Source: a virus
DNA: 39,300 nt
Virus genome (UHGV): UHGV-0123126
Reading direction: 5' to 3' (one strand)
In this document: in pieces, positions 2,400 through 39,200 of the stretch
Numbering within the stretch: the stretch's first letter is position 1
Layout: the number at the start of each line of letters is the position of its first letter
Position numbers and translations under genes: made by a program
The notes under the pieces: generated by a model
Database searches by the model: none
What the model saw: only the letters and a program-made list of their open reading frames with translations
What the model was told of the DNA's origin: nothing

Positions 2400-2419
2400 T
2401 TTTAAACAAATTGTTTTCT
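2400..2419. promoter_or_regulatory. Conserved 20-mer TTTTAAACAAATTGTTTTCT with palindromic core AAACAA-A-TTGTTT
   Basis: Identical 20-mer recurs at 30628..30647; variant AAACAA-C-TTGTTTTCTTA at 33560..33578. All lie just 5' of minus-strand gene starts. Confidence 0.45.
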
Positions 2420-2434
2420 TAATAAGATAATTGC

Positions 2435-2462
2435 GATAAAAAAGGCGTCCAACTGGACGCCT
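2435..2462 (-). terminator. Rho-independent terminator (stem AGGCGTCC/GGACGCCT, loop AACT, T-run on minus strand)
   Basis: Hairpin 2443..2462 followed on the minus strand by TTTTTTAT; sits just after the SPFH gene stop. Confidence 0.55.
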
Positions 2463-15682: not shown

Positions 15683-15745
15683 GCGCTTTTCCTTTGTTCT
15701 CTAATGAGCGTTCAAGTTCTTATATAAATATACCATTAACTATGG

Positions 15746-15759
15746 TAAGTAGTTACTTA
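15746..15759. promoter_or_regulatory. Palindrome TAAGTA-GT-TACTTA within conserved GGTAAGTAGTTACTTATC, between the CobT-like and CobS-like genes
   Basis: Near-identical GGTAGGTAGTTACTTACTTATC occurs at 31411..31430 upstream of another minus-strand gene. Confidence 0.4.
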
Positions 15760-15777: not shown

Positions 15778-17886
15778 TTACTTCAAAATGATACGAGATA
15801 GTTCAGTAACTACAGATGAACCAAGACTATCAACACTAGTTACCAGGGCATGATTTGCGTAAAATCTCTCCGGTGCATCAGTCATGATGCCAATTGCCAT
15901 CAAATCAATGTCAGTCTGCGTTTCAATTTGCTTCGTAACCGAACGCAAATGGGCGTCAAAACCTCTCCCAACAGCCCACGGCGCGCCATCACTCAGAACA
16001 AGCATGATCTTCCTGTCCTCCAAGCGACCGGAAAATAACGATGCAAGGCTGGCTATGCTTTCACCATCCACGTTATTAAGAAGTGGGAATGTGTAGCCTA
16101 CGCACCCCATACGTGAGCGAACTTCGCGAGAATTTGCTTTTTCATTCCAATTTTTGATGATAGGTAGCATTAAAGATTCAAAGCGAGAGAACTCATATTT
16201 GATAGCCTTAAGTTCTCCTGCTGCCATATGACTGCCAAATGTAGTGAAGCCGGTGATAATGTTGGGAACATTTATTCGATCAAGTGCATCGGCGATGGTA
16301 TATGCACTTGCAAGAGCTAGTTTTATCGTTTCGCCACTCATTGAACCCGATAAATCAATCACTTGTTGAACACAGGCGTTAACGGCTTTAGATTCTTCTT
16401 TTTTACGAAACACGCGATCATCATTCATTGTTAATCTGTAGATACTTGAACCATGAATGCGCCCCCGACGCTGGCCAGGTATAAACTGAACTCTGTTTCT
16501 GCTTGCTATTGCACGTTCCAGGTCTTTTGCCAGCGTCGACGAAACACCTGACGAAAGGTGCTTTTCAATATATTTGTCGAAGAGCTGGTTGCCTTCAGGA
16601 ACGATGCGATAACGGCTGATTGGATATCCACCTAAATCAATATCGGAGAATGTTTTAATAAGCCGTTTGATATGGGCTTCTGCCTGATCAATCGAGCCGA
16701 TGAAGTCGTATGAGCGATTGTATGGCCTGTATTCGCTTTTCGAGCTTTCTGTTAACTCGCTTTTAATCGTTTCGGATAGCGCATCTTCTGTCATGCCTCC
16801 GACTTCATCTTCCATGCTATCCAACTCCTCTAAAGCCTCTTCCAGACTCATTTTTGACGGAGTTGGAATGTCTGAAGAGCCGTCTTCTGTCGATTTTCTT
16901 TTTTCGTGGTCAGTGGTAAATGATTCTGACGCCGCGTTATCAGAAGCACCAGAATCTGATACCTCTTTATCATTTTCTGTATCATCGAATATTGTTTCTG
17001 ATGATTCAGAATTATCTGAATCATCACTGTCGTTATTATCATGTTTGTACTTACTGTGTGATTCTGATTTGATAGATTTGTGATTATCTAACGCTGAGGG
17101 TGTCTCATGATCTTCGTTGTCTTCATTGTTTTCTCCAGAGGCATCCGTCTGGTCAGCGTCTGAAGGATCGGAAGTTTTTCCCGGAGCTGACTCCTTACCT
17201 TTGCTTTCACTTTCAGTGTCTTTGAGGATCTTAGCTATGGTCGCAGCCACCTTTACACAATCCTCGGTGCAAGACATGTTACGCACGGCCACATCGATAC
17301 CATGTTCTTTTAATAATGAAATTGGTTTCTCAATGACAGGCCAATATTCATCCATGAAATCTACGAACGGTGCTTGGCCATCCCAGGCTCTTACAACCGG
17401 ACAGAGAAAGAAGTTTAGAAAAAGCGCGCGCTGATCTTTGCCACAATAAGCAATAGCCTCTGAAGCCTTTGTTTTAAAGACTTTTTCGATTATAAGGCGC
17501 TGAGTTGCCATCAGATTACGTCTTGTTCCGTTAAAGACCTGACCCATTTTTCGCTCGATGAACACGTCTTCTAAGGCATTCCATAGCGACCAGGAAGGAA
17601 CGCGTCCTTTTTCTCTCATTTTGTTGGACACACGAATATCGGTAAACAAAATGTGAGCAACCTCATGATCGAGAAATCCGCGCACAGCATTCATCAATGC
17701 CGGTGTTGCGTTATCCGGGATTGATGGGATGTTTACGAGAATTGGCTCTCCATCATCGTTATAGCGTACATAAGCGTCGTCCCCTCGTTCTGCAACAGGG
17801 ATGTTTTTACCTGAAAGGAGAGCGACTACTCGTTTTACACTGTCACGGAAGTCCTGAACCTCTTTGATGGAACGTTTTTTAGACAT
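15778..17886 (-). CDS. cobT: CobT-like von Willebrand factor A (vWA) domain protein with long acidic low-complexity linker
   Basis: 702 aa; MIDAS-like DLSGSMSGE; Ser/Asp/Glu-rich segment around residues 220-370; directly upstream of the AAA+ partner. Confidence 0.8.
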   Translation of the reverse strand: MSKKRSIKEVQDFRDSVKRVVALLSGKNIPVAERGDDAYVRYNDDGEPILVNIPSIPDNATPALMNAVRGFLDHEVAHILFTDIRVSNKMREKGRVPSWSLWNALEDVFIERKMGQVFNGTRRNLMATQRLIIEKVFKTKASEAIAYCGKDQRALFLNFFLCPVVRAWDGQAPFVDFMDEYWPVIEKPISLLKEHGIDVAVRNMSCTEDCVKVAATIAKILKDTESESKGKESAPGKTSDPSDADQTDASGENNEDNEDHETPSALDNHKSIKSESHSKYKHDNNDSDDSDNSESSETIFDDTENDKEVSDSGASDNAASESFTTDHEKRKSTEDGSSDIPTPSKMSLEEALEELDSMEDEVGGMTEDALSETIKSELTESSKSEYRPYNRSYDFIGSIDQAEAHIKRLIKTFSDIDLGGYPISRYRIVPEGNQLFDKYIEKHLSSGVSSTLAKDLERAIASRNRVQFIPGQRRGRIHGSSIYRLTMNDDRVFRKKEESKAVNACVQQVIDLSGSMSGETIKLALASAYTIADALDRINVPNIITGFTTFGSHMAAGELKAIKYEFSRFESLMLPIIKNWNEKANSREVRSRMGCVGYTFPLLNNVDGESIASLASLFSGRLEDRKIMLVLSDGAPWAVGRGFDAHLRSVTKQIETQTDIDLMAIGIMTDAPERFYANHALVTSVDSLGSSVVTELSRIILK

Positions 17887-17984
17887 GGCTAATCCTTTGT
17901 TATGAAAACAAATTATTTACTAGTGTGTTTAATGTAGCACTGCGCGAACAGGGAACTAAGCCATTCGCGCAGGGAGAAGAGGGG

Positions 17985-18374: not shown

Positions 18375-18417
18375 TTTACAACCCTAACCTTTGATGTAAT
18401 ATCGGTAAGCACTTACC
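18375..18417 (+). promoter_or_regulatory. Sigma70-type promoter (TTTACA, 16-bp spacer, TAATAT) followed by palindrome GGTAAGCACTTACC
   Basis: Hexamers at 18375..18380 and 18397..18402; 14-bp palindrome at 18404..18417; divergent intergenic region. Confidence 0.45.
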
Positions 18418-18448: not shown

Positions 18449-18835
18449 ATGTCTGATAACAAGATTGAATTTATAGAAAGTCGCTACGCTGCTTTTATCG
18501 CAGGGTTGATTGAATCCTCACCTATGAGCCAGGCCCAGATAGCCAAAACAATTGGGTATAAAAACGCCAACAACCTTTCTTTAATTAAAAGCGGCAAAAT
18601 TCCTTTGCCTATCGATAAGGTTCGTCCGCTGGCGCTGGCACTGGGCATTGAGCCAAGTCGTCTTATGATGATGGTGCTGGAAGAACGCCAACCCGAACTC
18701 GCAGCATTTTTATACAAAGAAGGCACTGCTCCTCTTAACGAGGACGAAAAACAGGTTCTTGCTGCATATAACGAGCGATTCGGTAAAGAGAAAGGCGCAT
18801 CACAAAAGGTTGTTGAGGCCATAAAGTCTCTATGA
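18449..18835 (+). CDS. Helix-turn-helix (XRE-like) transcriptional regulator
   Basis: 128 aa; HTH segment SQAQIAKTIGYKNANNLSLIKSGK; divergent from the replication operon, convergent with the recombinase. Confidence 0.7.
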   Translation: MSDNKIEFIESRYAAFIAGLIESSPMSQAQIAKTIGYKNANNLSLIKSGKIPLPIDKVRPLALALGIEPSRLMMMVLEERQPELAAFLYKEGTAPLNEDEKQVLAAYNERFGKEKGASQKVVEAIKSL

Positions 18836-19959: not shown

Positions 19960-19979
19960 CACTGTATAAGTAAACAGTA
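19960..19979. promoter_or_regulatory. LexA-box-like site CACTGTATAAGTAAACAGTA (CTGT-N8-ACAG)
   Basis: Fits CTGT-N8-ACAG with A/T-rich spacer; about 30 bp upstream of the recombinase start. Confidence 0.4.
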
Positions 19980-20563: not shown

Positions 20564-21826
20564 ATGCCTTTTTTAATTTTCATTATTATACTACTGCTCA
20601 CCGTCATTTTTTGGGATTGGGTTGTTTTAAATGGTCAAACTGTTGGAACATTGGCTACAGCATTTGCTTTTATAGCAACAGCATGGAATGCCTACGAAGC
20701 GAGAAAAAGTGCAAAAGCAGCTTTTTCAGCCCTTCAATTAACAACTGAATCATTGTTCGAAATGCGAAAGAGTGCATTTAAACAATGGTTTGATTCCTTA
20801 TTAAATCAACATGATGAGTTATGTCTTCTTGCAAAACAAATTATCGATAAACACAAAATTAATTTAAACAGCGATGAGTTACATAGACTATATTATCCAT
20901 TGGTAAGACAGCATGAGGTAATACAGTATGTGAAGCATATTATTAATATATTTGAGTATGTGGATGGTTCATTTTATATTGATGGGGAATGTCTCAAGGA
21001 AAAAAGAGCGTATGTGTCACAATTAATTTTTAAAATCCCACCTCAGATGAAGTTGATCATTGCTATCTTTGGATTAAAAATCGATTATTGTGAACATATT
21101 AATTCGGAAAAACTGTGTTGTTTATTGAATAAATATGATTTTTTCAATGATGAAATATTTTTTGATGATGCTTATTCAAATATGCCTTATCTGGATACAT
21201 TCATAAACCTTAGATTCAACAAAATATTCAAATCTCGAATGATAAATTATTTTGATAATATCATTAAAAGTTATTATGTTCCATCGGACGTTAAAAGGGA
21301 CTGGATGTTTCGACACCCAAAGCTCGTACCGTCGGTTCTTATGAATTATAAAACTCCTTGTTCTCCTATAATTAATGATTACTTTGAGAAGTTGCCTTTA
21401 CATGTAAGAAACTACTTTGAGGAACTACTTAAAACCGCGAATGATAGAGTTACTCATTTTGACGTTTACATCCCACGCCTTATTGGTTGTTCAATCGTGC
21501 AACATTACGAAGATGTGCCTTCCGAAAAAAACAGGTTAAATGACAGGAATGATGTAATAGCTATGGCTGAAGATTACATCGAGAAAAGAAAATCTAATCA
21601 ACTAGATTACATACTTGAAGATATATACTTTAAGAGTGACGAAGATATAATCCCAGGCCACCATTTAATTGTGGCATTTGATGACTATGAATATAAATTA
21701 GCACTAATTAAGATAAATGAAAATAAAGATAACGATAATCTTTTAAATCGAATTTATACTGAATCCAGTAGCATGGTTAATGAATATAAGCGCGAAATAT
21801 TAAAATTGGGCGACTATGCAAAGTAA
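20564..21826 (+). CDS. AT-rich membrane-anchored protein of unknown function (two N-terminal TM helices, about 370-aa cytoplasmic domain); candidate abortive-infection/defence protein
   Basis: 420-aa ORF with GC content clearly lower than flanking DNA; only long plus-strand gene here; own terminator. Confidence 0.65.
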   Translation: MPFLIFIIILLLTVIFWDWVVLNGQTVGTLATAFAFIATAWNAYEARKSAKAAFSALQLTTESLFEMRKSAFKQWFDSLLNQHDELCLLAKQIIDKHKINLNSDELHRLYYPLVRQHEVIQYVKHIINIFEYVDGSFYIDGECLKEKRAYVSQLIFKIPPQMKLIIAIFGLKIDYCEHINSEKLCCLLNKYDFFNDEIFFDDAYSNMPYLDTFINLRFNKIFKSRMINYFDNIIKSYYVPSDVKRDWMFRHPKLVPSVLMNYKTPCSPIINDYFEKLPLHVRNYFEELLKTANDRVTHFDVYIPRLIGCSIVQHYEDVPSEKNRLNDRNDVIAMAEDYIEKRKSNQLDYILEDIYFKSDEDIIPGHHLIVAFDDYEYKLALIKINENKDNDNLLNRIYTESSSMVNEYKREILKLGDYAK

Positions 21827-23638: not shown

Positions 23639-23787
23639 TTTTTCACCTTTGTTTCATGAACTACCCGATACACACGCTTTCCGATGCACAGTGTTTTGGT
23701 TTTAAGTTCCTGCTTAATTAAATCACGACAGATGCCGAAGCCGATAAGGAAGCCACCCATAAAAGCTAATGAGATGTATGGAATCAT
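23635..23787 (-). CDS. Small membrane protein (50 aa), not in ORF track
   Basis: Own translation MIPYISLAFMGGFLIGFGICRDLIKQELKTKTLCIGKRVYRVVHETKVKK; ATGA overlaps at both ends. Confidence 0.4.
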   Translation of the reverse strand: MIPYISLAFMGGFLIGFGICRDLIKQELKTKTLCIGKRVYRVVHETKVKK

Positions 23788-23999
23788 TTTAACACTCCTG
23801 ATTCTACTAATTGCTGTAGCAATACTTTCCCTTTATCAGTTAACTGGTAGTTGGCCGAACACCACGTTTCAGAAACGTTTGCAACCAACCCTAAACGCTC
23901 TAACTTAGCTCGCGTTTTAGGCTTCCAGTACTCAGGGAACTCCGGCCACTTACTGATTTCATGAAGCGTTTCCTTCTCCCGTTTACTTAATACGATCAT
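23784..23999 (-). CDS. Hypothetical small protein (71 aa)
   Basis: Coupled ORF in the post-ligase operon. Confidence 0.5.
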   Translation of the reverse strand: MIVLSKREKETLHEISKWPEFPEYWKPKTRAKLERLGLVANVSETWCSANYQLTDKGKVLLQQLVESGVLK

Positions 24000-29190: not shown

Positions 29191-29271
29191 GTGTTTTTCT
29201 TTTGTGGTTTGGCAAAAGAAAAGTTGTTTCACCAATGAATCAAGCGTGGAGGTGTTCTCCACGCTTATTTT

Positions 29272-30612
29272 TTAGGTAACGTCTAAGATTCGCTCAATGA
29301 AGCGCATTTGTTCGAGGTTTTGTTTAACGCGAATGCTGATCCCTCCCTGCTGGTTACGTGAACCAGCAAAGTAGAGACGAGCCTCTCCTTTCGCTTCTTC
29401 TTCTTCGGTTTTGTTGATCGTTATTACCAGGTCAGCAATACGTACTTTTTCGATGTTGTCGGCAGCGTGCATCATTGTGGCAACTTCTGACGCGCCACCT
29501 TCACGGTTTGTCTGCGATGCCGTGATCCCAGCAACGTTATGCTTGTCATAAAGAGCACGTAAATCGGTGTAGATACTACGAATGTTGGCGCGATCATCTC
29601 GAAGGTCATAACTGGCACGCATCAAATCTGCGTAGTCGACAACAACCATGTCAGGCACCATGCCGTTGGCTTTCATGCTGTTAAGCATACGGTCCAGATC
29701 TGCCGGTGACATACTTCCTGACGGACGCTCAACAACCCACAAACTACCAATACCCTTCGTAGCTCCCAACTCTGCCAACTTGCGATGAACTTCATCGCGC
29801 CGTTCCACCAACTTGGACATTTCCGTCTCCGACAATCTTGCATCAAAACGGTCGGATAAAATGGTGGTGTGAACCTCCAGCGAGAGATACAGAACATTGT
29901 AGCCAGCAAGTGTTGCGTTTATGGAAAACTCACCCATTGCGGTCGATTTACCGGATTTAGCGAACCCCATGAAGAGCACCATTTCGCGCTTTGCCCAGCC
30001 TTTTTGGTACAGCAACCTATCGAGAAGAGGGAGTCCAGTTGTAATACTGTTTGGTACATACTCCTCTGAAGCCTCATATTCACGCGCTTTCAATCGCTCA
30101 CTTGCGGAGGTGTAGTAGTCATAGATTCCGGTCGCTTCGTTCGATCCAATCTGCTGAACCTTGGCCATGATTGCCATCGCCCCGTGAAAGTCGCCTTTCT
30201 CTTTCAGTTCAGCAGCCTTAATCAGAGCATCATCAAACGCTACACTTTTTGCGAAGGTTGATACCTGGTCAACCATGTACGAGGTATCGGACAATTTTTC
30301 TGCAAGAATGCGCTTAAACGCAGCAACAACATCGGCGAATAGTTCCTCACGGATAGTCTTATCGCGTTTCGCACGCTTAAGCATATCCAGAATTGCAGAT
30401 GAAGAGGGCGCGCTCTTGTACATACGGTAATAGCCCGAAACCATATTAACCAATATGGCATTGGCCGCATTGGCAAATTGGCTAGGTACAACCAGATCTC
30501 CAGCACGAGTAAGAAACTCGTGATCACGACAAAAATAGGCCGTCAATCTGTTCTGAAAATCTTCATCAAACTCTTCGGACAGCCCGCGTCCTGTATGGCA
30601 AAGTTCGGTCAT
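29272..30612 (-). CDS. dnaB: Replicative DNA helicase, DnaB-like
   Basis: Walker A GFAKSGKST, RecA-fold C-terminal domain, 446 aa; directly upstream of the primase. Confidence 0.85.
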   Translation of the reverse strand: MTELCHTGRGLSEEFDEDFQNRLTAYFCRDHEFLTRAGDLVVPSQFANAANAILVNMVSGYYRMYKSAPSSSAILDMLKRAKRDKTIREELFADVVAAFKRILAEKLSDTSYMVDQVSTFAKSVAFDDALIKAAELKEKGDFHGAMAIMAKVQQIGSNEATGIYDYYTSASERLKAREYEASEEYVPNSITTGLPLLDRLLYQKGWAKREMVLFMGFAKSGKSTAMGEFSINATLAGYNVLYLSLEVHTTILSDRFDARLSETEMSKLVERRDEVHRKLAELGATKGIGSLWVVERPSGSMSPADLDRMLNSMKANGMVPDMVVVDYADLMRASYDLRDDRANIRSIYTDLRALYDKHNVAGITASQTNREGGASEVATMMHAADNIEKVRIADLVITINKTEEEEAKGEARLYFAGSRNQQGGISIRVKQNLEQMRFIERILDVT

Positions 30613-30655
30613 GTGCTTTCCTTTGTTTTTTAAACAAATTGTTTTCTAGTATTAG

Positions 30656-31396
30656 TTAATTAGATAGGGGATCAATAAACCGCCGTGCTTCTTCCAGTTC
30701 TTCTGGAAAGTGGGCGGAAATAAGGCGCTCTGGAACGATTTCCATTAGCCAGATAGCGGAGAAAATTGCGCGTATGCGCTTGCTGCGGGGGATGGTGCGT
30801 AAACGCTCCAGAATCCACTCAAAATAGCTTTCCTGAATCGGGTTGAACTGCATGTCTCCCATATGCTTAAAGCTAACGAGAGAGTCATCCAGACGGGTTG
30901 TTGCGCGTCTGGCTAATTTCTCTTCGAATATCTCAATCAGCTCTGGCTGCCATAAATGCTGTGGGCGCGGCAGCTTGTCCCACAGCCGTCGTGCAGCTGC
31001 GGAAAGAACGGTGGAGATAAAGTAGTCGTATGAGCAGCAATAGCGGTCAGCATACTGGCGTGCTTTCCATAGCGACGTTTTATTGGCAGTCGACAACTCC
31101 TGATAAGGCAGGCGTTTTAACCCGGTGGTGAACGGAGCTGTTTCAAAGTGTTCGCGACCGTGCGTCAGCATGATATTTGAGTACTGACGTTTGTATGCCT
31201 CCGTAAAAAGACAGGTGGCCATGAGAGGATGCATGTCGCGGTAATCAAACCACTTCGTCTCGAAGAGTTCAGCCTCGTCTTTACAGCGCGACAAACCAAT
31301 GTTTTCAGCGACCCACTTGTCCATAACAGCGGTATTCCACTCTGTCATGAAGTCGTACTGGTCGTTGTCGATGGTATCGAAAAAGATTTGGCTCAT
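30656..31396 (-). CDS. Hypothetical protein (about 246 aa from ATG 31394..31396; track ORF starts at GTG 31405)
   Basis: AGGTGA SD 7 nt before the ATG; conserved GGTAGGTAGTTACTTACTTATC upstream. Confidence 0.5.
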   Translation of the reverse strand: MSQIFFDTIDNDQYDFMTEWNTAVMDKWVAENIGLSRCKDEAELFETKWFDYRDMHPLMATCLFTEAYKRQYSNIMLTHGREHFETAPFTTGLKRLPYQELSTANKTSLWKARQYADRYCCSYDYFISTVLSAAARRLWDKLPRPQHLWQPELIEIFEEKLARRATTRLDDSLVSFKHMGDMQFNPIQESYFEWILERLRTIPRSKRIRAIFSAIWLMEIVPERLISAHFPEELEEARRFIDPLSN

Positions 31397-31678
31397 GTGG
31401 CTCACCTGGTAGGTAGTTACTTACTTATCACAATGAACGGATGATAGCGACTGGTGGCAGTTTTTGGAAGTGGAAACGGAAGGGAGTTGTTCTGGTGGTG
31501 TCTTTTAAAAGACCTGCTTCCGTATATATTTAATAAGTTACTTATTATTTATATATACAGAAGCAGGCATAACTTGTCGTCTTAGACGCCCAGAAGCTCT
31601 ACACTTTGAGCCTGTTAAATTGATTAAAAACTTATGTGTAAAATAGAACGCATTAGTCAGTAGCTAAGAGATGCAATA

Positions 31679-32446
31679 ATGGACGATTTATCGGTATACG
31701 CGAGATCATTGGATAAGGCTAAATACTATGTTTACTGTCTCTATGATACAGAAGACAAGATGAAAAGACCGTTTTACATAGGAAAAGGCAAATCGACTCG
31801 TTGTCTCGATCACATCAAGTATCCCGATGACTCTCCCAAATCCATGCGGATCAAAGAACTTTTGGCTAATAAAAAATTAGGCATAGATATTCTTCGTCAT
31901 GGTATGGATGAAACCACAGCCAAACTTGTTGAGGCGACATGCATCGACCTTATGGGGGTCGGAGAGCTTACGAATAAGGTACGAGGAAGTGGTTCCATGA
32001 TGGGCAGAATATCACTGGACGCCTACCATCACTTAGTGCTGCAAGAGGAAACTGAAATTGCTCCTGAGCACGCCGGTCTTGCCTTCCTGCTAAACAGCAC
32101 CTACAAGTCAGGAATGTCCGCTCTGGCATTATATGAAGCTACGCGTGGCGTATGGGCAAAGGTTCCAAGAGACGAGAATCTCAAATATGCCTACGCTACA
32201 TATGGTGGGCTAATAATGGAAGTTTATCAGATTGAATGCTGGGTCAAAGCCGGTTCTCAGCAGTACTTTACAAGGGATATAGCTCTTGGCCCCGACACAA
32301 AACGTTATGAATTTGTTGGCAGAATAGCCGATGAGCATATTAGAAAACTGTATGTAGGCAAATTAATCAAGAAGCCACCAAGCTACGGTAGCCCTTTTGT
32401 GAAGGTTGGGGTGGTTAGGACTGAACATAGTGTTAGCGCGGCATAA
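31679..32446 (+). CDS. GIY-YIG nuclease-domain protein with uncharacterised C-terminal domain
   Basis: N-terminal YYVYCLYD...PFYIGKGKSTR fits GIY-YIG; isolated plus-strand gene with strong terminator. Confidence 0.7.
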   Translation: MDDLSVYARSLDKAKYYVYCLYDTEDKMKRPFYIGKGKSTRCLDHIKYPDDSPKSMRIKELLANKKLGIDILRHGMDETTAKLVEATCIDLMGVGELTNKVRGSGSMMGRISLDAYHHLVLQEETEIAPEHAGLAFLLNSTYKSGMSALALYEATRGVWAKVPRDENLKYAYATYGGLIMEVYQIECWVKAGSQQYFTRDIALGPDTKRYEFVGRIADEHIRKLYVGKLIKKPPSYGSPFVKVGVVRTEHSVSAA

Positions 32447-32460
32447 AGCTGACACTGTAG

Positions 32461-32500
32461 TCATGCATTGGCGCAATGTACGCGCCAATGCATGATTTTT
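32461..32500. terminator. Strong rho-independent terminator: 14-bp stem TCATGCATTGGCGC / GCGCCAATGCATGA, 7-nt loop, TTTTT
   Basis: Perfect stem, T-run on plus strand after the GIY-YIG gene; also abuts the parG-like 3' end. Confidence 0.7.
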
Positions 32501-32858
32501 AACCTTTCTTCATCAACTCTCGTTTGATTTCATCGGTACGCATCGTGACATCGGCAGCGGTGATCGCCTCATTCAATTTCACGATGTCCTCGATTTCCTG
32601 CGGTGACTTCTCTGCCAGATGGAAAATGGCTGCTCGAATCACGTCAGAACGAGTGAACTTCTCGAAGCGAGGGATGAACTTCATCATCTCCAGCAGTTCG
32701 AAGTATTCGTCCTCCAGTGACATTGTGCGGCTTTTAATTTTCTCTTTGCCACGAGTCGGGCGTCCCTGTGGTCTGACTGGTTGGCGCAAAGGAGTTGTGT
32801 TCTTAGCCGGTGCATCAGGCTCTTTGCGCTTTGCTAGGTCACCCATTTTCATGGACAT
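32499..32858 (-). CDS. Small ParG-like partition/centromere-binding protein (basic N-terminal tail, possible ribbon-helix-helix)
   Basis: 119 aa, Lys/Arg/Pro-rich N-terminus then structured C-terminus; start overlaps parA stop (TAATG). Confidence 0.55.
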   Translation of the reverse strand: MSMKMGDLAKRKEPDAPAKNTTPLRQPVRPQGRPTRGKEKIKSRTMSLEDEYFELLEMMKFIPRFEKFTRSDVIRAAIFHLAEKSPQEIEDIVKLNEAITAADVTMRTDEIKRELMKKG

Positions 32859-33526
32859 TATTCTTCTTCCTCCAGACTCAACAGATAATCTACAAATTCT
32901 TCAAACTCGGCTTCCGCCTTTTTGTCGCGCTCGCTACCGGTCATTTCAAAGATAGAACGACCAGACTCTTCCGCATCATCATAGACGTTGCGGTTATATA
33001 GATTGACTGGCGCAGACTCGATGCCGAACGTCTCGACAATCTCTTTAGCCGCCAGAATGCGAGACACTTGTGATGGCAAAGCCGGGCACTGGTTCATGAC
33101 CGCGCGGACCTTCACTTTATCGTTTACATTGCGAACATTGTCGATAATAGGATCGATGTCACGTAAAGATTTCAAATCACGACGCTTAGGACGCAGCGGG
33201 ATAATGATAACGTCAGCCATCAGCATCGCTTGTCGCTGAATTTCGGAGTCGAAGCCACCAGCATCTACCACTACAAACTCAGCTCTACCCTGAAGCGATT
33301 TTAGGTGCTTAATGATGTCATCCTGAACGTATGCAAAAGGAATCAGCTCAAGGTCTTCGTTCTGTCGACGGTCTTCACACCAGCTCGTTGTCGTGCGCTG
33401 AATATCTATATCGGTAATATAAACCTTCTTCTTCTTTTTGACTTTCAGGCAAACGGCAATTTGCTGGGCAACGGTGGATTTGCCAGGCCCGCCCTTTGTG
33501 CCGCCAACCACAAAGATCTTGGTCAT
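32858..33526 (-). CDS. parA: ParA/Soj-family partition ATPase (deviant Walker A)
   Basis: VVGGTKGGPGKST deviant Walker A near N-terminus; 222 aa; followed by small basic protein. Confidence 0.85.
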   Translation of the reverse strand: MTKIFVVGGTKGGPGKSTVAQQIAVCLKVKKKKKVYITDIDIQRTTTSWCEDRRQNEDLELIPFAYVQDDIIKHLKSLQGRAEFVVVDAGGFDSEIQRQAMLMADVIIIPLRPKRRDLKSLRDIDPIIDNVRNVNDKVKVRAVMNQCPALPSQVSRILAAKEIVETFGIESAPVNLYNRNVYDDAEESGRSIFEMTGSERDKKAEAEFEEFVDYLLSLEEEE

Positions 33527-33844
33527 TGGAGAGTTCCCTTTGCGTATATAATTATCGTCTGAAACAACTTGTTTTCTTATATGTGATATAGCCTAAATGC
33601 CTACGGCTGCGGTGTAAAGGTTAAATGGTAGGTTGTGATTAACAATTGGCAATCATAGCTTGTATTTGTCTGTTGAAAAAAGTAACAATGACCTCTATAT
33701 TACAAGTACGGTGATATGCCGTACACAATTTGATAATGCACACGTAATGGGCTATAGCCTTTTAAAGTAATTTTTGAGTCGAAAACTCAGTTTGAACAGA
33801 GGAGATTGATGGCCTTCCTACATCACGGCCATCAGGAGGAATAC

Positions 33845-34114
33845 ATGTCAGCACTAAAAAAGCAGCGCATCGATTTGAGATTAACCGATGACGATAAAAG
33901 CATCATCGAGGAAGCTGCCGCAATGTCTAACCAGAGCATTACTCAGTTTATGGTTAGCAGTGCATCTGAACGTGCCGTGAAAGTTATAGAGCAACACCGT
34001 AGACTAGTTCTGAATGAAGAATCCTGGAATCTGGTTATGGACGCTATAAGCAATCCTCCGGCACCGAACGACAAGCTGAAACGAGCTGCTGATCGTCTGA
34101 AAAGCATGGAGTAG
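33845..34114 (+). CDS. TacA-type (DUF1778-like) antitoxin of a GNAT toxin-antitoxin pair
   Basis: 89 aa from ATG 33845 with AGGAGGA SD; MSALKKQRIDLRLTDDDKSIIEEAA...; 7 nt before the GNAT toxin gene. Confidence 0.8.
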   Translation: MSALKKQRIDLRLTDDDKSIIEEAAAMSNQSITQFMVSSASERAVKVIEQHRRLVLNEESWNLVMDAISNPPAPNDKLKRAADRLKSME

Positions 34115-36094: not shown

Positions 36095-36296
36095 GTTTTC
36101 CTCCATGAAAAGTCAAATCGGGATGGCGGATTTATATCACACTTCTCCTTTCAATTATAGGTATATACTTACCTATCTATGTATATACCGTTTAACGGCT
36201 GTTCAAATTCGTATCTAGTAACTCACTAATATATCCCTATGATTGCGGCTGTGAGATCGCATTTTAAACCTCACAGCCATATAAATAATGTCTAAA

Positions 36297-39200
36297 TCAG
36301 TTACTTGTTGCCCCAACAGTACCTGCAAATTTCAGCCATTGACCTGACGGACTTCTATTACTACGGTAGTGATAAACGAGGATTGCGTTTGTAACTCCAC
36401 CGTAGTCAGCTTTATGTGACGTTGTTAAACGAATTGTATAATCACCGTTAGGTAGATTAAAAACTTCGATTATAGATTCTGCTAATTCTACAGCACCAAA
36501 TCCCGTTATATTGTTGATACTGCCAGCATTGAATCCCATAGCATCGCCAAAGCCAATCCAATAACTTTTGCTAAACGCCCCATTTGATTTTAGGTGGCTA
36601 ATGAATGTGGACAAACTCATGCCCATATCCCCACCTGAAACAGAGGAAGTTCGCACAGTCATGCTTGGAAGAGCACTGCTCTTCACATAGGAACTTAGAA
36701 GGTTTGTTACCTCTGTTTTCGTATAGGCATTAAGGTTAGCCGCAGTCAAAGTAATATCGGCAGAGCCATCAAACGCCACACCAGCAATTTTCCTTGCTGT
36801 CTGCAATTTTGTGGCGGTTGCGGCATTACCAGTAGTGTTCTGGTTCCCATCTGCATTCACACCTGGGATGCTGTCTTTTTTAGTATATATCTGAGTCCAG
36901 TCCTCTTCGAACCCATAGCCATCACGTGATGAACGGTAATACAATCCACCATTTTTATAATGCGCTCGGATTTGGAGAGTCCGACAACTACCTACGCCTG
37001 TATAAAAATTTGCAACGATATAAGAATCCCCGGAGCGTGTAACATTATACGCACCTGATTCGGCATTCCACGGGACCGCACCACTAGCATCGGCATAAGT
37101 TCCAGTAGCGCGTCGAGCAAAAGCAGATACATTTGCAGCTGTTAGTGTTATATCAGCAGAACCATCAAAAGCCACGCCACTTATTTTTCTGGCAGTTTGT
37201 AACTTTGTAGCCGTAGATGCATTACCGTTCAAACTACCATTGATGCCGCCAGTAACATTGAGTCCATTACCAATGGACACAGCACCGCTGGTATTGTTAA
37301 TTGTAATCGGTCGCAAACCGTTCCATGAACCTAATGTGTCTCCTGATGCTGTTAGCATGAAATATGTGTTCGACCCATCATTACGGATAAAGAACCCAAA
37401 GCTACCGTAAGCAATGCGGAAACCATTTGCATATTTTGAAACGATCTCACCAGAAGACGTTAACCCTCCAGATAATGTGCCACCTGAAAGCGGTAATGCG
37501 CCGACATCCGTGGCGGTCGGTTTAATGTGCGAACTGTAAATGACATATACCGTTCCATCAGTAAGACCAGTTGGTTTATTCGCTGTATAAGTTGGTGATG
37601 TATGAATCGTTACGCTGGCGTTACTGGTATAATCCCACTGAATATTAACACCTGTGGCGTAATTACCTATTTCAACATAAACATCATAGGTATCACCGGA
37701 TGTATTCACCCATGCAAAATTAGTAAATCCAACCGATGTCCGTCGCCATAATGCACCAGTAATACCCTTTGGATTTCCATTTCCGGCACGCAGAACCAGC
37801 TCAGAGATGCCTGCTTGATGCGGGGAGCCAACGTTATACCCTGCACCACCAATCAGGCTTATGTAAACCACGGAACTGGCCTGTGGCATGGTTACAGTTG
37901 CCAGCTTGAACCATCCGGCACCACCAATAAAAGACATTGTTGCTGAGTTGATCGTGCCTATAGACCTTGGAGTTAGCTCAATGTTTTTAGAACCGTCAAA
38001 CGACACCCCATTAATAGTACGCGCAGTCTGCAACTTCGTAGCAGTAGCCGCATTACCTGTTGTATTCTGATTACCAGTCGTATTAACACCTGGCAAATTA
38101 ATATTTGCAGTACCATCAAAGCTCACGCCGCCGATAGTTCTTGCCGTCTGTAGTTTTGTAGCAGTTGCAGCATTACCAGTGGTGTTCTGATTACCCGTAG
38201 TGTTTACACCTGGAAGGTTAATATTTGCAGAACCGTCGAAAACAACTCCACCGATAGATCTTGCCGTCTGTAATTTCGTTGCTGTAGCAGCATTTCCTGA
38301 AAGACTTGAAATAAATGGATGTGAACAGTAATAACCTCGTCCATTTTTAAAGTCCAAAATTATCTGTGCATTCGTACTTTCTGATAAAGGATCAGTTGCC
38401 CCCCACTTATAAGTGGTTTGACCAACTGCATAATCAGCCGTTGGAACAATCACATTTAATCCTTCCTCAGCAAAAATCTGGATAGGGAATGCTCTTGTCT
38501 CAACGTAAAATACACTACACAAATCATCATCTTTCACGCTTGCGATAATCGAGTGTATAGATCGTTCAACGGTTGAATATATTGAGAAAAAACCAACAGC
38601 ATATGAACCGCGATCAGACCAACCGCCCGGCATAACAAAACCATTAAACTCACAATTATTCATAGCGTATCCGCCAGCTGAGGAATAAGTGGTGATAACC
38701 ACTCGTGAGGCTAATTCATCTGTGCCACCACCAGTTCGGCGAAAGACTACAGGATACCACTTACCGCTTACTGCATTTGCAGGAGCAGAGAAAGTGTATT
38801 TTCGCATCCCCTTTTTCTTATCCACTTCACCTTTGCTGTAAACATTAATGTTATTCAGGAAGCGGCCCTTGTCGGGGATATCAGCACCATTCTGATCCTT
38901 CTGTAGTCGTTTTTCAGCATTATCATATGCGGTCTTAACTGCTTTTGGTGTCGCGGCTAAAGATTCACTGGTGCTGTCGACAGCACTGCTAAGTTTCACA
39001 ACACCTTTGGTGGTAAGGCTTGCATCTTCCATCGCAACTGCACCGGCAATCTCTTCAGCACGATCAGCAGCAGCTTCCGCACGGGTCGCAGCGGATTCAG
39101 CAGCAGTTTTGCTCTGAGATGCTGCCGTCGCACTGCCTGCCGCCTCTGTTGCTTTCGTGGATGCTGTCGTGGCGCTGCCCTTCGCTGCGGACGCTTGTCT

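Follow-up and report, generated by a model that had tools for sequence, protein, structure and literature searches.

The stretch of DNA analysed here (hereafter the window) comprises 39,300 nucleotides of the virus genome UHGV-0123126. It is 98% identical to Escherichia phage Cyrano; its identity to Salmonella phage SSU5 is ~80%, which makes it an SSU5-type phage-plasmid. A 20-mer, TTTTAAACAAATTGTTTTCT, occurs exactly at 2400-2419 and at 30628-30647, just where the initial annotation had placed it, and again with three mismatches at 33558-33577, so that the variant described upstream of parA is present while the coordinates originally given for it (33560-33578) were off by 1-2 nt. Dinucleotide-preserving shuffles predict 0.02 matches to the 20-mer and none of 100 shuffles reached three, in line with the original judgement that such recurrence is unlikely by chance. 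The long open reading frames (ORFs) near all three sites lie on the minus strand, a point missing from the otherwise correct description of the motif as sitting upstream of genes. In gene orientation the motif reads AGAAAACAAnTTGTTT, and the three sites share the form AGAAAACAA(T/G)TTGTTT, 16-35 nt 5' of an ATG. The flanks of the two exact copies diverge at once (C/T on the left, T/A on the right) and identity ends at 20 nt; the 20-mer is therefore not a recombination scar within a longer duplicated segment, a possibility raised together with the original observation. When the core AAACAANTTGTTT was searched with up to one mismatch, four matches were found in the window against 0.30 expected, a number reached by no shuffle, and the additional copy (AAACAAATTATTT, 17906-17918) had not been noted before.

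All four genes with the motif upstream are encoded on the minus strand (1962-2387, 15778-17886, 29272-30612, and 32858-33526), and the motif copies, which we treat as putative operators, are given in that orientation. Copy 1 (core AAACAATTTGTTT, 2404-2416; extended form AGAAAACAATTTGTTT, 2404-2419) lies 16 nt 5' of the ATG (2387) of a 141-aa DUF7238 ORF that opens a small operon whose last member is a Cra-like gene (868-1080), and the orthologous site is kept in Cyrano, SSU5, and the Yersinia plasmid pMT1. Copy 2 (again AAACAATTTGTTT, 30632-30644, extended to 30647) is found 19 nt 5' of the ATG (30612) of a DnaB-like helicase gene followed by the rest of a helicase-primase operon, with orthologous sites in six genomes. 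Copy 3 (AAACAAGTTGTTT, 33562-33574, extended to 33577) stands 35 nt 5' of the ATG (33526) of a type Ib ParA gene and is likewise conserved in six genomes. Copy 4 (AAATAATTTGTTT, 17906-17918) carries one mismatch and precedes by 19 nt the ATG (17886) of a 702-aa CobT-like ORF; its orthologues in SSU5, Klebsiella phage pJN2-26, and pMT1 are perfect sites. A degenerate copy with two mismatches (AAACAACTTTTCT, 29217-29229, minus strand) occupies the helicase-primase spacer directly after the helicase terminator, and resembles the terminator-plus-site layout of other promoters described below.

Several features of the window are distinct from these sites. An IS3-family insertion sequence (1-868), with an HTH_Tnp_1 transposase ORF at 488-814, is 100% identical to DNA in phage 21 and Stx phages. 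Thousands of plasmids also contain this sequence, which here runs up to the end of the Cra-like gene, the point at which similarity to Cyrano starts. The DUF7238 gene has an ATG (2385-2387) and a good ribosome-binding site in the window, while Cyrano (58620-58633) has ATA in place of this ATG, which explains the later annotated start of the Cyrano gene. Two ORFs run on the plus strand: one (31679-32446), located between the par and dnaB operons, encodes a protein of 255 aa with a GIY-YIG (LEM-3-like) domain, and the other (20564-21826) encodes 420 aa and adjoins the integrase gene. At the equivalent places in Cyrano the opposite-strand ORFs are absent or different, and both are probably cargo or homing-type insertions. 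The 911-aa tail-fibre gene contains a 120-bp tandem repeat (38026-38294; 2.2 copies, 80% match).

Across relatives, the motif proved to be far more widespread than the window alone indicated. With up to one mismatch, AAACAANTTGTTT is present in 18 copies in Cyrano, 20 in the first 99.9 kb of SSU5, and 17 in pJN2-26, against ~0.8, ~0.3, and ~0.5 expected, respectively, and none of 100 shuffles of any genome reached the observed count. Six copies persist in pMT1, and more diverged SSU5-like contigs retain the parA and dnaB sites. When all perfect palindromes with 6-nt arms were counted blindly in Cyrano, AAACAA-N1-TTGTTT was the most frequent, with nine copies. The 17-20 copies per genome occupy orthologous promoter-proximal positions, mostly <50 nt from start codons, upstream of terS (two copies), parA, dnaB, cobT, nrdB, a tciA-like gene, and a dozen small genes of an early-looking cluster. 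The initial annotation was thus right that the motif is shared across genes, but the three sites it noted are part of a pattern on the scale of a genome-wide regulon.

The palindromic core AAACAA-N-TTGTTT holds across this larger set, and its central base is unconstrained. Over 55 sites the centre is A in 15, C in 11, G in 15, and T in 14 (0.01 bit), whereas the twelve specified bases of this 13-bp unit are almost invariant. The unit is often preceded by AGA, and its promoter-side extension usually takes the form AGAAAACAA. Pairwise identity among the orthologous parA, dnaB, cobT, and DUF7238 (CY58 in Cyrano) sites is 94-97% in the core, 20-33% at the centre, and 40-69% in the 30-40 nt flanks, and variant sites show single-sided, uncompensated changes. 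This combination of two-fold symmetry, a free centre, and one-sided variants without compensation is that expected of a protein dimer on double-stranded DNA. A chance repeat or functionless recombination scar could draw on the A/T-rich sequence and on the 20-nt identity of the two exact copies, which is partly luck atop a constrained ~16-nt consensus; the counts unmatched in 100 shuffles, the end of identity at 20 nt, and the conservation footprint at orthologous sites refute it, and we consider its probability negligible.

The earlier suggestion of a shared operator or promoter element is supported by the palindrome, its recurrence and conservation over the flanks, and also by its position between sigma-70-type -10 elements and ribosome-binding sites. 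For three of the four sites in the window, a canonical sigma-70 consensus scan called no gene-strand promoter, and promoters were then inferred from cross-genome conservation. A T located 13 nt before the core is conserved in 47 of 55 sites, which fits the last base of a -10 hexamer, and in the early-gene cluster this T is the final base of TGnGATAAT, an extended -10 element at a fixed distance. The putative parA promoter (33590-33618, minus strand) combines a -35 element TTTACA (33613-33618), a 17-nt spacer, and a -10 element TAGGCT (33590-33595) upstream of the palindromic core; hexamers and spacing are kept in SSU5, pJN2-26, and three further sequences (L130, L132, and L134) while the spacer sequence has diverged, and the operator would span about +4 to +20. 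The putative helicase promoter (30648-30675, minus strand) consists of TTGATC (30670-30675), a 16-nt spacer, and AATACT (30648-30653), matched at equal spacing by TTGATC/TTGATT and TAGTAT/TACGAT in SSU5 and pJN2-26, and its predicted start falls inside the left half of the operator. For cobT, a candidate extended -10 element (TGcTACATT, 17931-17939, minus strand, no -35 assigned) lies 9 nt 5' of the extended operator; its counterparts there are TGaTAAATT in SSU5 and TGtTATTTT in pJN2-26, and it is this conserved position with diverged sequence that points to a promoter element. Upstream of copy 1, the stretch 2424-2462 (minus strand) includes both the terminator hairpin of the preceding SPFH gene (2443-2462) and a putative DUF7238 promoter (2424-2452; TTGGAC at 2447-2452, 17-nt spacer, TATCTT at 2424-2429), whose hexamers were read from the sequence and fall below the promoter-scan threshold, and whose predicted start lies at the left edge of the operator. 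Assuming the usual 7 nt from the -10 element to the start, the palindrome would span roughly +8 to +20 of sigma-70 promoters, many of them with an extended -10 element, just before the Shine-Dalgarno sequence, with the dnaB and DUF7238 palindromes likely overlapping the start itself. The AGA/TCT extension always faces the -10 element.

In a second layout, a copy directly follows a terminator hairpin ~19 nt 5' of TGTGAAAAT or TGAGATAAT, with its centre near -38, and another copy often lies 51 bp downstream of it. In the region upstream of the Cyrano terminase small-subunit gene terS (L002:57-130), a strong intrinsic terminator stands between the gene and two palindromes 25 bp apart, an arrangement identical in SSU5, pJN2-26, and pMT1, which suggests that late-gene expression needs derepression plus read-through.

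Expression in a lysogen is available for every Cyrano gene from RNA-seq of an overnight culture of strain LF82, with a background median of 9.8 (PMC9928086, S1 table). Motif-bearing first genes were at background in 12 of 15 cases (5.7-12.9): terS 7.1, cobT 7.8, CY58 5.7, nrdB 12.9, tciA 7.0, CY87 7.1, eae 6.3, CY101 7.5, CY105 12.8, CY106 12.2, CY108 5.7, and CY110 6.7 (PMC9928086). The three above background were parA (50), dnaB (21), and CYRAN_111 (25.5), and the two genes after parA reached 89 and 55 (PMC9928086). Genes that lack the motif and were clearly on include toxin-antitoxin pairs, repA (133), a helix-turn-helix repressor gene (96), and the integrase gene (50) (PMC9928086). Since extended -10 promoters should fire unaided, the silence of motif-bearing promoters argues for repression in the lysogen; it would equally follow from promoters that depend on an activator. 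The motif could then be a positive-control or antitermination loading site, at which an early lytic factor activates the promoter or modifies RNA polymerase to pass terminators. The two terS copies ahead of an intrinsic terminator, the overall frequency of intergenic terminators, and the copies centred near -38, a usual position for an activator, would all fit such a factor, and its absence would account for lysogen silence as well as repression does. However, most copies are centred near +14, past good extended -10 elements, most sites have no terminator before the silent first gene, and no Q- or N-like protein was identified, so that we rate this explanation as improbable.

Most copies lie 3-20 nt 5' of the ribosome-binding site and would be transcribed, and hence the motif could instead act in the mRNA leader, either as the target of a translational repressor or as an A/U-rich translational enhancer close upstream of the Shine-Dalgarno sequence. 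The leader of T7 gene 10 (AAATAATTTTGTTTAAC) resembles the motif. A candidate translational repressor is encoded by CYRAN_114 (L004:980-1501, outside the window), a full-length member of the FljA family (PF03614, E = 1e-80). FljA is the repressor of phase-1 flagellin and binds the fliC leader, and the Salmonella and Citrobacter fliC leader has CAAGTTGT 13 nt before its ribosome-binding site; this match covers 8 of the 12 core positions, which we estimate would arise by chance in ~14% of cases and is not significant. Homologues of the FljA-family protein are found in Cyrano, SSU5, pJN2-26, and pMT1, all with the motif, and in none of the genes of a distant Moellerella plasmid relative, which also lacks the motif; outside SSU5-like phages, the phage collection contained no FljA-like genes except two weak partial matches in short fragments. 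Klebsiella and Yersinia pestis are non-flagellated hosts, and the presence of the gene in their phage-plasmids suggests a role within the element rather than in control of host flagellin. Against action in the leader, the strict two-fold symmetry and free centre indicate a dimer on double-stranded DNA, a number of copies precede the promoter, directly after terminators and outside any leader, and the FljA-like gene is expressed at only ~2x background in the lysogen. Folding of four leaders was no better than that of shuffled sequences (z = -1.1 to +0.3), and together with the lack of compensatory changes in variant sites this rules out an RNA hairpin or structured leader. Overall, we regard a leader element as unlikely, if slightly less so than an activator or antitermination site.

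The distribution of the motif also bears on whether its binding protein is encoded by the element or by the host. Identical sequence is kept in elements of four host genera, as would be expected if a host protein common to enterobacteria bound the motif. In a scan of viral contigs, however, 27 of 38 multi-copy motif loci were SSU5-like (the other 11 had 2-4 copies each, and single matches in other contigs are probably due to chance), and the Moellerella element has no copy of the palindrome, nor did any replacement palindrome stand out there. To our knowledge, no enterobacterial regulator has an AAACAA-N-TTGTTT consensus, and we consider a host protein quite improbable, clearly more so than the leader or activator explanations.

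Taken together, these observations lead us to favour, with moderate confidence, the interpretation that the palindrome is the operator of a dimeric repressor encoded by SSU5-type phage-plasmids and acting at ~20 promoters. A protein dimer bound to the palindrome would block open-complex formation or promoter escape, and where a promoter has another copy ~51 bp upstream (around -38), as some do, binding could be cooperative. In the plasmid prophage, a single element-encoded regulator would thereby hold down the replication genes (DnaB-primase, NrdB, and CobT-like), numerous small early genes, and the promoter region that precedes the terminase gene, while the parA operon would be throttled rather than silenced.

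Among candidate binders for such a repressor operator, the foremost is the 119-aa partner of ParA (32499-32858, minus strand), although we put its chances below even. ParA itself (32858-33526, minus strand; 222 aa) is a small type Ib Walker ATPase with MipZ, AAA_31, CbiA, and ParA matches (phrog_164) and no N-terminal DNA-binding domain, and it is the first gene under operator copy 3. The partner ORF overlaps the parA stop, and the gene accompanies parA in 797 plasmid records from Klebsiella, Escherichia, Enterobacter, and Salmonella. A parA promoter that carries the site, with the partner gene following parA, is the classical self-regulating layout. The partner has a disordered basic N-terminal tail, then IKSRTMSLEDEY, then two helices, a pattern compatible with a ribbon-helix-helix-like fold; a structure model of weak quality (pLDDT 63) gives an extended segment and helices at 48-60 and 70-84. 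In homologues with identities as low as 48%, IKSRTMSLEDEY and FTRSDVIRAAI do not vary, while Pfam, PDB sequence, and fold searches with the partner returned no match. In the lysogen its gene is expressed at 89, ~9x background (PMC9928086). In the Moellerella relative the corresponding protein segment is nearly unchanged (IKSRTVSMEDEY) and the palindrome is absent, which counts against the partner as the binder; pMT1 keeps six sites without the partner, a weak test given that this divergence is too recent. In the region around parA (31400-33850), we found a single inverted pair and no direct or tandem repeats or array of the kind usual for type Ib centromeres. It is possible, although rather doubtful, that the ParA partner binds all ~20 palindromes, which would then be both a scattered centromere and a silencer of replication, early, and late promoters.

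Two other proteins appear equally credible to each other, and each considerably less so than the ParA partner. The first is the FljA-family protein discussed above, and the second is the 92-aa CYRAN_117, which shows lysogen expression of 114 and a ribbon-helix-helix-like pattern, with strand residues that vary between genomes in which the motif is invariant. The remaining probability falls to another protein of the element or of the host. The helix-turn-helix repressor (18449-18835) is an unlikely binder because its upstream region lacks an AAACAA copy and its own promoter has another palindrome. As lysogenic repressors, the two ParB_N proteins, a 71-aa winged-helix-like protein (23784-23999), and CYRAN_123 are unlikely, their lysogen level being that of background.

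The palindrome upstream of the helix-turn-helix repressor gene is a perfect GGTAAG-NN-CTTACC (GGTAAGnnCTTACC, 18404-18417), and pJN2-26 keeps it at the equivalent position despite an identity of only 56% between the two repressors. It belongs to a second dispersed family, (A/T)ATA-GGTAAGyrCTTACC-TAT, with this exact copy 30-45 nt 5' of the repressor gene and weaker copies at 15744-15757 and 36160-36173; in Cyrano, SSU5, and pJN2-26, the other copies lie at gene junctions within operons, late genes included. This second palindrome is probably the operator of the helix-turn-helix repressor, in a stoperator-like arrangement as in mycobacteriophage L5. Separately, divergent TATATAC(G/A)GAAGCAGG arms (31513-31528, minus strand, and 31552-31567, plus strand) flank an A/T-rich palindromic spacer, and each of the genomes of Cyrano, SSU5, and pJN2-26 has three loci of this kind, one of them just upstream of the terS operators. 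At the corresponding place the Moellerella relative has TATAAATACTATGGGAGCTAGGC, which includes the T4 late-promoter word TATAAATA, and these pairs may be bidirectional late promoters. The -10 element (TAATAT) of the integrase promoter overlaps a perfect LexA-type box, CTGT-N8-ACAG (19960-19979), which Cyrano, pJN2-26, and pMT1 have all retained while the spacers diverged. Because the integrase and helix-turn-helix repressor genes are convergent, with the integrase gene extending over the end of the repressor gene, SOS-induced antisense transcription could lower the repressor, which would fit the 39-fold induction by ciprofloxacin reported for Cyrano. Outside the window, CYRAN_81 (Cyrano 78480-78800) includes a 44-codon GTG-start ORF, is expressed in the lysogen at 12x background, and is 91-98% conserved in SSU5 and pJN2-26; a small RNA seems a better fit than a protein gene.

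SSU5-type phage-plasmids are common, and, as far as we found, the control of their ~100 kb of lytic genes during plasmid life has not been worked out. The group includes pMT1 of Yersinia pestis, and its members reportedly carry resistance genes (PMC9600943). The palindrome provides a handle on this control, namely a candidate regulon of ~20 marked promoters and a 19-bp bait, AGAAAACAATTTGTTTTCT, for the regulator. Considered alongside the other two repeated elements, it points to a layered circuit, with the helix-turn-helix repressor and its own palindrome, a LexA-controlled integrase promoter, and candidate late promoters. If the ParA partner is the binder, the segregation machinery doubles as part of lysis-lysogeny control, an omega/KorB-style coupling that has not been described for a phage, and if it is the FljA-family protein, FljA would represent a captured phage-plasmid regulator.

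A literature search by motif strings returned no relevant paper, searches on SSU5 regulation likewise gave none, and as far as we found the AAACAA-N-TTGTTT operator has no published description; it would be useful for widespread, little-studied elements, and its mechanism resembles known dispersed-operator networks in kind rather than being new. The likeness to lac operator O1 (centre at +11) is one of position only, as a palindrome just past the transcription start with, sometimes, an auxiliary upstream site; there is neither a LacI-family protein nor any similarity in sequence. The stoperators of mycobacteriophage L5, bound by gp71, are likewise dozens of short repressor sites extending beyond the immunity region, but they are asymmetric and orientation-dependent and act on elongation within operons, whereas the motif studied here is palindromic and promoter-proximal; the second palindrome (GGTAAGnnCTTACC), at gene junctions, is the closer parallel.

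A nearer precedent is phage P1, also a plasmid prophage, in which C1 uses one operator across many promoters, including that of the phage's own replicative helicase. One C1 protein silences many unlinked operons, among them ban, a DnaB homologue with Op72 upstream. The C1 operator is an asymmetric 17-mer, ATTGCTCTAATAAATTT, and P1 parA is not under C1 control, whereas here the site is a 13-bp palindrome, parA carries a copy, and no C1 homologue was seen; a search of the window and Cyrano with the C1 consensus gave no match with up to two mismatches. The KorB/KorA system of RK2 similarly places palindromic operators at many replication and stable-inheritance promoters under a regulator linked to partition, and the KorB site is also 13 bp with an odd centre, some sites being promoter-proximal and some upstream as here. 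KorB is a ParB-family protein, whereas the two ParB_N proteins of Cyrano are at lysogen background; no KorA homologue was found, and the KorB and KorA operators (TTTAGCSGCTAAA and GTTTAGCTAAAC) had no exact match in the window or Cyrano, with four and six matches in the window and eight and six in Cyrano at 1-2 mismatches.

The features of the type Ib partition family, finally, are only partly present, and are best compared with those of the omega/delta system of pSM19035. The omega heptad, WATCACW, has no exact match here, and omega sites form arrays of 7-10 heptads, whereas here single inverted pairs are spread over ~20 places. Yet omega dimers bind paired heptads at 7-bp spacing, in direct or inverted orientation, and the half-sites of AAACAA-N-TTGTTT are likewise 7 bp apart. 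Both systems pair a small type Ib ParA (delta in pSM19035) with a small protein encoded after it whose N-terminal tail is disordered, and in pSM19035 omega represses both the par operon and a replication-control promoter, so that partition and replication are co-regulated.
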